A stretch of 23,647 nucleotides of DNA from IMG/VR virus record IMGVR_UViG_2609460344_000008. One strand, given 5' to 3'. The notes below the pieces were generated by a model. It made no database searches, was not told the origin of the DNA, and saw only the letters and a program-made list of their open reading frames with translations. Position 1 is the stretch's first letter, and each line of letters starts with the position of its first letter. This document shows, one piece after another, positions 300 through 590 of this stretch. The translations under genes were made by a program, and so were the position numbers. The stretch is from a virus (taxonomy: Duplodnaviria > Heunggongvirae > Uroviricota > Caudoviricetes).

Positions 300-390
300 C
301 CCGACCGGGGGGGGGTATCATTCGGCGTAAAAAACGATCGCTCCGGACACCGCGCCCCCTCTCACGCAGAGAAAAAATTCCCGTTTCAGG

Positions 391-518
391 CCAGTTAACA
401 TGTTAACTGGCTGTCCGGGCATTTTTGCGGTTTTTATCTTTATTATTCAGTTTGTTGTGCGAAAAAAAATGTTAACTGGCTTTTTCAGAAAATGTTAACC
501 AGGCAGCAGTTAACATTT
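391..518. repeat. Cluster of GTTAAC-core repeats including a perfect 20-bp palindrome CCAGTTAACATGTTAACTGG (391..410); further copies at about 469..479, 491..503 and 508..518 (inverted)
   Basis: Read directly from sequence; non-coding gap between the HNH gene and the small terminase; candidate terminase-binding (cosB-like) or regulatory sites. Confidence 0.5.
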
Positions 519-590
519 GCGGCATGAGACGCCGGGAAAAATGGGCTGAACCATACCCGGCTGAGTGCGTTCTGGACCCGGGAGGAGGCT

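Follow-up and report, generated by a model that had tools for sequence, protein, structure and literature searches.

The closest described counterparts of the element considered here, the non-coding gap at positions 300-590 of a 23,647-nucleotide stretch of caudoviral DNA (IMG/VR record IMGVR_UViG_2609460344_000008, hereafter the window), are the cohesive-end sites (cos) of HK97-type phages. The gap separates a gene for an HNH endonuclease from terS, which encodes the small terminase (TerS) and is followed by terL, the gene for the large terminase (TerL). HK97, SfI and fEg-Aba01 share this layout, with HNH directly upstream and terS-terL downstream, and, like the window, they combine a 10-nt 3' overhang with an A/T-tract after the cut. 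In HK97-type phages the large terminase is likewise a TerL_ATPase/TerL_nuclease protein, and a G-tract followed by (T)ATCA stands about 41-45 nt before the end. The HNH protein of HK97, gp74, is reported, in summaries of the cited literature, to be needed for or to stimulate cos cleavage. However, HK97 differs from the window in that its terS lies about 50 nt after the cut rather than 230 nt, in its gene order, which in the window runs terL, protease-capsid fusion, portal, and in its mapped TerS site, which is a single 15-bp element at +15..+29, whereas the gap of the window holds an array of five half-sites (offsets +n are counted rightwards from the cut at 360/361, so that 394..407 corresponds to +34..+47). 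The HK97 small terminase, gp1, we take to belong to a family other than the Terminase_2 family of the window protein, without detectable similarity to it.

More distant systems share the logic of the site. The lambda cos (cosQ-cosN-cosB) resembles the proposed layout of the window in having an element at the last-packaged end, a nicking site, and oriented small-terminase sites with bent DNA on the first-packaged side; it is also copied by satellites, as in the cos sites of phage-inducible chromosomal islands. Lambda differs in its 12-nt 5' overhang, its Nu1-type winged-helix TerS, its integration host factor (IHF) site and its lack of an HNH protein; the TerS of the window is not Phage_Nu1, and no sequence similarity to the lambda cos was found. 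The small terminase G1P of SPP1 and SF6 carries an N-terminal DNA-binding domain of the same Pfam family as the TerS of the window, and in SPP1 multiple contact points flank the cut and the DNA is bent (review PMC9611059). These phages differ in packaging by the headful mechanism from pac, whereas the family of the window makes defined cohesive ends. The cos of the Shiga toxin 1 (Stx1) phage Lys8385Vzw is essentially the element of the window, with about 97% DNA identity and the same cut position; the paper describing it gives the 10-nt sequence only, with no G-tract, conserved core or half-site array (PMC7946995).

Judged by comparison of sequences, window 300-590 very probably represents the cos region of a lambdoid prophage that belongs to the Stx-phage (Pankowvirus-like) type and packages in the HK97 style with HNH assistance. 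A cos or terminase-recognition region had been proposed for this gap in a preliminary description made from the sequence alone, and the proposal is borne out by the virion ends of Lys8385Vzw and fEg-Aba01, which align inside the gap. For Lys8385Vzw, PhageTerm applied to virion reads returned a cos phage with 10-nt 3' cohesive ends (PMC7946995); the first base of its record is the homologue of window 361, the last bases are ...GGACACCGCCCCCCCT, and the overhang is CGCCCCCCCT. For Acinetobacter phage fEg-Aba01, a more distant relative that has its core sequence in common with the window, PhageTerm mapping of the ends was confirmed by a heat/cool restriction gel (PMC7354433). The linear record of this phage ends ...caGGGGGG-(45 nt)-...GGACACCGCCCCCCAT, with the last 10 nt annotated as the 3' cohesive end (overhang CGCCCCCCAT), and starts CGCACGCACAAAAAAAATTCCC; the N-terminus of its terS product is 51% identical to the window TerS over residues 2-50. 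Since the ends of both relatives align unambiguously to ...GGACACCGCGCCCCCT on the left and CTCACGCAGAGAAAAAATTCCC on the right of the cut, the prophage cut is placed at 351-360. Homology to the mapped ends shows in this way where the cut should fall and which type of overhang it should leave: cosN occupies 351..360 (+ strand) as a predicted 10-nt 3' cohesive end, CGCGCCCCCT, with nicks at 360/361 on the top strand and 350/351 on the bottom strand.

This placement qualifies the earlier proposal without overturning it. The cos assignment stands, but the motifs that had been highlighted are not the cut, since cleavage falls between the G9 run and the palindrome and coincides with neither. The G-run and the GTTAAC repeats are both real; they lie on opposite sides of the cut, and their roles are likely to differ, the G-run being packaged last and the repeats first. 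The suggested comparison with HK97-like cos regions revealed the same placement between HNH and terS, a 10-nt 3' overhang and a G-tract at a similar distance. As far as the relatives allow a judgment, the ends lie in the gap and not elsewhere, packaging does not appear to be headful, and the repeats are conserved. The records of vB_Pae_CF121c and Burkholderia vB_PR2a, checked for further mapped ends, were not opened at cos, and a limited literature search for the literal overhang sequences returned unrelated papers only.

The region is widespread. It is 90-99% identical to 93 phage records, covering Stx1a-, Stx2a- and Stx2c-converting phages and including BP-4795, 2851, 1717, YYZ-2008 and Pankowvirus phi330; nearly all of these records are prophage-style, so that their own ends are uninformative on cos. 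Among 5426 complete E. coli genomes, 1288 contain it, some in as many as seven copies. Conservation was followed across 105 related loci, which include 80 E. coli-type viral contigs and 20 loci from other species (Atlantibacter, Kluyvera, Enterobacter, Citrobacter, Kosakonia, Erwinia, Pantoea, Rouxiella, Serratia, Proteus, Buttiauxella and Acinetobacter). Among 57 unique E. coli-type sequences, the core at 345-380 is the least variable part, with 28% of columns varying against 83-100% in the adjacent stretches. Its left flank, GGACAC at 345..350 (+), is part of this pattern (GGACACCGC is invariant in the 57 sequences) and is also kept across Enterobacterales and Acinetobacter. The right flank at 361..382 (+), which consists of CTCACGCAGAG, an A6 tract (372-377) and then TTCCC, is common to Salmonella, Erwinia, Proteus, Burkholderia and Acinetobacter relatives. 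Throughout the 20 other-species loci the core is kept as GGACACC, 10 nt, and CTCACGCA(C)AGAAAAAAT. The overhang within it tolerates substitutions even among otherwise near-identical prophages, including families that co-occur in O157 genomes; the related loci carry CGCGCCCCCT (67 times), CGCCCCCCGT (14 times), CGCCCCCCCT (8 times) and other variants. An inverted repeat of 11/11 nt that abuts cosN (GGTGTCCGGAG at 254-264 and CTCCGGACACC at 341-351) was considered as a further element; it brackets the 3' end of HNH together with the G-tract, matches at only 6-8 of 11 positions beyond the closest relatives, and was dropped as lineage-specific or due to chance.

The G-tract, a run of G9 at 307..315 (+), is present within CCGACCGGGGGGGGG just as first reported, and its position at the last-packaged end, equivalent to that of lambda cosQ, suggests a conserved upstream cos subsite. 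A lone G9 is not improbable in G-rich sequence of this length (about 0.6 expected, on a rough estimate); its significance therefore derives from conservation and not from chance statistics. In every informative locus of the comparison set, a G-run of 6-11 nt has its 3' edge 43-46 nt before the cut, with a mode of 45 nt, which is also the distance found in the window. Three loci seem to depart from this, but there the stretch is cut off by the start of the record, runs into a contig edge or is masked as an N-run; locus L009, a satellite described below, has G7 at 43 nt. The variation in length fits a slippage-prone homopolymer, and from one genus to another the sequence that separates the G-run from the core is often unrelated. 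The same run is found 45 nt before the cut in fEg-Aba01, 42 nt before the right end in HK97 (G9 then ATCAAATCTT) and 41 nt from the end in SfI (GGGGAGGGGCGGG then TCAAATCT). It tracks cosN and not HNH, as in several relatives the HNH stop codon is followed by about 100 nt or a whole open reading frame (ORF) before the G-run is reached. Since the G-tract, HNH-assisted cos packaging and related large terminases are all common to HK97, SfI and the family of the window, the tract is probably read by TerL or HNH rather than by TerS.

Two further observations concern G-runs. The only other run of at least seven G in the window is a G7 at 7332-7338, within the head/tail gene block. In the PPompW prophage of LC567822, the insertion sequence (IS) ISEc20, of the IS110 family, sits inside the G-tract (locus L110, 1046-2504), with its junction at about window 311/312. 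It is flanked by G7 on one side and by G5 and ATCATCC on the other; this prophage lacks the lysis genes and HNH, and Q and the tRNAs abut the IS. Prophages of the PPompW type retain cosN, terS and terL and have lost HNH. Either G-runs are a target of ISEc20, or recombination between IS copies made the deletion.

On the right of the cut, the gap holds an array of five half-sites. The perfect 20-bp palindrome noted in the preliminary description, CCAGTTAACA followed directly by TGTTAACTGG, lies at 391-410 and extends to 22 bp (390..411) with the flanking G/C. It contains two TGTTAAC 7-mers arranged head to head, at 394-400 (-) and 401-407 (+), i.e., +34..+47, and is proposed as the primary TerS site. 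The three further copies of the motif that had been described are also there, namely TGTTAACTGG at 470-479 (+), TGTTAACCAG at 493-502 (+) and CAGTTAACAT at 507-516 in the opposite orientation, with their 7-mers at 470-476 (+), 493-499 (+) and 509-515 (-). The first of these belongs to half-site 3 (AAAATGTTAACTGGCT, 466..481, +; 7-mer at +110..+116), and the other two constitute half-sites 4 and 5 (489..518; AAAATGTTAAC-CAGGCAGCA-GTTAACATTT), an inverted pair with a 9-bp gap at +133..+155. Such clustering is far beyond chance: TGTTAACYRG occurs four times against 0.12 expected in shuffles, none of 100 shuffles reaching four, and the five TGTTAAC motifs fall within 125 bp (Poisson p ~2e-10 across the window), with just two others in 23.6 kb.

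The A/T tracts reported between the motifs were recovered as A6 at 329-334, A6 at 372-377, T5 at 422-426, T5 at 431-435, A8 at 462-469 and T5 at 481-485. The palindrome and half-site 3 are separated by an AT-rich spacer (412..465), which carries a conserved ATTCA block and two of the T5 tracts (422-426, 431-435) and may be intrinsically bent. T-tracts recur at matching spots in other prophages (type B, below) and in satellites. A block of ATTCA(G/T) followed by GTTG (window 445-451, ATTCAG) is also kept at a constant place in type A, type B and satellite spacers, which diverge in the rest of their sequence. A host factor could bind there, but the block departs from the IHF consensus; no match to that consensus, WATCAANNNNTTR, with at most one mismatch was found in 300-590, and an IHF-dependent bend is not claimed.

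The array is conserved in position as well as in sequence. In 81 loci (type A), TGTTAAC occurs at all five positions at the offsets of the window (+/- 3 nt), and across the 57 unique E. coli-type sequences the half-sites are better conserved than the spacers. The palindrome, GT(A/T)AAC-ATG-TTAAC, is centered at +40/+41 in all relatives and keeps GT(A/T)AACATGTTAAC at +34..+47. In 17 of the 20 other-species loci, as in Salmonella phage SP-016, the ATG at the center of this palindrome serves as the start codon of terS and is preceded by a GGAGGG Shine-Dalgarno sequence. The Proteus, Pantoea and Acinetobacter loci do not have ATGTTAAC at the start of terS, and GTTAAC-like motifs (GTTAAC, GTAAAC, GTTAAT) lie upstream of it; fEg-Aba01 carries GTTAAA as three direct repeats at a spacing of about 11 bp. 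The E. coli lineage stands out in having about 190 bp between the palindrome and terS, which hold the half-sites at +110, +133 and +149. TTA accounts for 2.9% of Leu codons in the long ORFs of the phage, yet all 17 loci of short architecture have it as the second codon of terS, and TTAAC is kept at the start of terS in Burkholderia and Pseudomonas phages, whose hosts are GC-rich. Retention of this rare codon indicates that the motif is constrained at the DNA level even where it is coding. The five half-sites are most likely a small-terminase recognition array, analogous to lambda cosB.

The identity of the reader is suggested by a second lineage. In four loci (type B: STEC1587, 2012C-4221, CFIAFB20140388 and A34), TGTTTAT or TGTTTAC replaces TGTTAAC at all five positions, at the offsets of the window. 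Half-site 3 is TGTTTAT, the distal inverted pair is TGTTTAC/GTAAACA, and the palindrome, GTTATAAACA followed by TGTTTATAAC, is a different 20-bp sequence that is again perfect; the type B spacers, compared among themselves and with the window, reach only 74-87% identity. Neutral drift does not account for five parallel changes to a single new sequence, which imply one putative reader with lineage-specific specificity. As both lineages occur in E. coli, this reader is probably encoded by the phage.

The window TerS matches PF03592 (Terminase_2) over residues 2-57 only (E = 1.2e-8, 36.1 bits, cut-off 26.1), and its N-terminus gives a weak alignment in the PDB to the DNA-binding domain of SF6 G1P (4zc3/2cmp/3zqp). 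An AlphaFold2 model of it, made from the single sequence and of low confidence (predicted local distance difference test score, pLDDT, 59), was used for helix boundaries only and places helices at residues 4-14, 18-26, 30-41 and 44-56. The N-terminal differences from type A to type B are K19R, A25E, A30E, T32S and V35C, which map to helix 2 and the recognition helix according to the alignment with SF6 G1P and this low-confidence model. The type A helix is found in 81/81 type A loci and the type B helix in 4/4 type B loci, a covariation that is suggestive of TerS as the half-site reader.

The extent of the element is outlined by phage satellites. At least three islands carrying integrase and RepA-helicase genes contain the cos region without a homologue of HNH or terS: 20AR0192 at clpS (NZ_CP195401, L007 8001-8174), F2_407_2_2 at yejO (NZ_CP074756, L114 9001-9174) and GPEC1186 near fis (NZ_CM142789, L009 6001-6083). 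The islands have the composition Integrase/Icd/DUF4222/RepA-helicase, with the cos copy at their distal edge. Similarity between satellite and phage extends only from -17 to +158, i.e., from the core to just past half-site 5 (window 518). Upstream of the core only a G8 run survives, at the right distance, amid unrelated flanks; downstream of the array there is no phage gene and nothing for the repeats to regulate. The satellites thus appear to delimit the minimal functional unit as the G-tract, the core and the five half-sites, window 307-518, and the comparison shows that constraint acts on the cos motifs and that satellites have co-opted them. At 80% coverage or more, 47 of the 5426 E. coli genomes have the satellite version of cos, strain 042 among them.

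Several features of individual satellites were also recorded. One encodes a ClpP-type protease-capsid fusion; another has a capsid, a decoration protein and a possibly Rpp-like member of the Nu1 family that carries the annotation terS. The GPEC1186 satellite (L009 6054-6220) carries a mixed array, in which the palindrome ATAAACATGTTTAC and TGTTTAC are type B-like and several GTTAAC are type A-like, and an overhang variant, CGCCACCTCT. A mixed array of this kind could make helpers of either specificity usable.

A number of points weigh against parts of this interpretation. The cut is assigned from the virion ends of relatives and not from those of this prophage itself; the overhang of the window is one base off that of Lys8385Vzw (G for C at the third base), and the coordinates printed in the Lys8385Vzw paper are garbled ("50,977-50,953"; PMC7946995). 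A limited literature search on G-tracts in cos sites returned unrelated papers only, and no experiment supporting a role for the tract was found for any phage. SF6-type small terminases are poor sequence-specific binders in vitro (PMC9611059), and the inverted half-sites could also fold as RNA hairpins in the late transcript (z = -2.1). The covariation between the two types amounts in essence to a single evolutionary event, and terS lies less than 100 bp from the sites, so that linkage alone could account for the association with the TerS changes, though not for five sites changing in concert. Finally, HK97 TerS binds at +15..+29, beside the A-tract (PMC11331095), and the A-tract core could therefore be the primary TerS site here as well.

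The last point also favors an alternative in which the GTTAAC repeats are non-functional copies of an ancestral terS 5' end (ATG-TTA-AC, Met-Leu-Thr), generated by an insertion or duplication of about 190 bp, with the real TerS site in the A-tract core as in HK97. In its support, terS of SP-016 and of 17 other-species loci begins at +39/+40 with ATGTTAACAG, inside the palindrome, and the ATG at 400 of the window opens a 32-codon ORF (400-498, MLTGCPGIFAVFIFIIQFVVRKKMLTGFFRKC) that has no Shine-Dalgarno sequence and looks like the fossil of an ancestral terS start; the window terS opens with GTG-CTG-ACA at +231. In addition, 529-541 (ACGCCGGGAAAAA) is 85% identical to 364-376 (ACGCAGAGAAAAA), which hints at an old tandem duplication downstream of cosN. 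However, leftover copies would not be expected to move together to one new sequence at all five sites, as in type B, while their spacers drifted, to be more conserved than those spacers, or to be held by satellites as five sites at unchanged offsets, with similarity stopping past the fifth. The rare TTA codon is moreover kept even in the Burkholderia and Pseudomonas phage relatives. On balance, this origin for the repeats is unlikely.

Less likely still is that the inverted repeats act on RNA or transcription, as hairpins or as an operator for terS/terL expression from the late transcript, and not in packaging. The palindrome and the inverted pair at 490-518 can form 10-bp stems, whose pairing the symmetric type B changes preserve; RNA of 361-600 folds somewhat better than shuffles, with the z value given above, and a palindrome over the terS start codon of the relatives could occlude translation initiation. 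Against this, half-site 3 has no adjacent inverted partner, its nearest complement being the palindrome arm 61 nt upstream, and yet it changed together with the others, and the direct GTTAAA repeats of fEg-Aba01 (three copies) cannot form hairpins at all. The array stands at a fixed distance from the cut, and in satellites it lies at the island edge with no downstream gene to regulate. A scan of 200-700 yielded no promoter or terminator on the + strand and one weak promoter-like match on the minus strand, and Rfam returned no family match and a single meaningless sub-threshold match. A third view, that cleavage takes place in G9 or in the 20-bp palindrome or that headful (pac) packaging is initiated nearby, can appeal to palindromes as classic nuclease targets and to Terminase_2 as a family whose best-known members come from the pac phages SPP1 and SF6, but it is highly improbable, being already contradicted by the mapped ends of two homologous phages at 350/351 and 360/361 (the G-run being 35-45 nt away and the palindrome 30 nt), by the PhageTerm class of Lys8385Vzw, cos with 3' ends (PMC7946995), and by the HNH-terS-terL order, an arrangement associated with cos (Kala et al. 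2014, cited in PMC11331095).

With the half-sites taken as a TerS array, a mechanism can be sketched for the site. TerL and the HNH protein encoded upstream would nick the strands 10 bp apart (360/361 on the top strand, 350/351 on the bottom strand) to leave the 3' overhang CGCGCCCCCT. Packaging would proceed rightwards into terS, the DNA on the right of the cut being packaged first. At initiation, the helix-turn-helix domains of an oligomeric TerS would bind the half-site array, and the 59-bp spacer, with its T5 tracts 9 bp apart and its A8, would probably bend so that the proximal and distal sites meet one TerS assembly. The bound TerS may anchor TerL and HNH on the core, GGACACC followed by the overhang and CTCACGCAGAGAAAAAAT. 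At termination, the motor would arrive from the HNH side and meet the G-tract 45 bp before the next cut, a third subsite that may act like cosQ. In this scheme, the pairings of proteins with motifs, the bend in the spacer and the role of the G-tract are the parts that we infer.

Combining these strands, we put forward a tentative joint reading, which may well need revision. The HK97-type 3'-cos would have a third subsite, a phased G-tract 41-46 nt upstream that is read by TerL or HNH and is the counterpart of cosQ. Specificity in the Terminase_2 lineage would reside in a swappable array of TerS half-sites, with at least two "codes" in E. coli (TGTTAAC and TGTTTAY), imitated by satellites and with one hybrid array that might serve either type of helper.

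The genes on either side agree with the proposed function, and the HNH and terS genes that had been placed upstream and downstream of the gap were both confirmed. The 3' part of the HNH endonuclease gene, a packaging-module accessory nuclease, occupies 1..299 (+, frame 3, stop TAA at 297-299); its translation contains a CxxC...DH...N...CxxCH motif and matches Pfam PF01844 (E = 3.9e-8), and it is 43% identical across the motif to the HNH protein of the cos phage fEg-Aba01. The small terminase gene, terS, runs from 591 to 1154 (+) with a GTG start and a Shine-Dalgarno sequence, GGGAGGAGG, at 580-588. The large terminase gene, terL (1151..2812, +), encodes an ATPase and nuclease (Pfam PF03354, PF20441) that is 97.8% identical to TerL of Lys8385Vzw and about 22% identical to the SfI and ST64B terminases over 86-95% of its length (tblastn). 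Downstream lie a 645-aa Peptidase_S78 and Phage_capsid fusion (2876-4813) and the portal gene (PF04860, 5025-6389); the prohead protease (S78) is thus fused to the HK97-fold capsid, and the fusion gene precedes the portal, unlike the HK97 order.

Taken as a whole, the element is an ordinary HK97-style, HNH-assisted 3'-cos, and since the 10-nt cos of a near-identical phage is already published, its novelty is modest. In a limited literature search, no account came to light of the phased G-tract, the two types of half-site or satellites with this cos, and the layout of accessory motifs is clearer here than in the published work so found. Its fine structure offers a lead of modest interest that lends itself readily to testing. 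The G-tract may be an overlooked element of the HK97 in vitro packaging system, in which the 784-bp cos fragment (-312 to +472) already includes it, and the half-site array touches on the question of how an SF6-like helix-turn-helix small terminase gains sequence specificity. The module is very common, also among many Stx1 and Stx2 phages, and co-resident prophages share one cos type, such that an intact phage could package defective neighbors as well as satellites. Cross-packaging of this kind bears on the spread of Shiga-toxin genes and other cargo.

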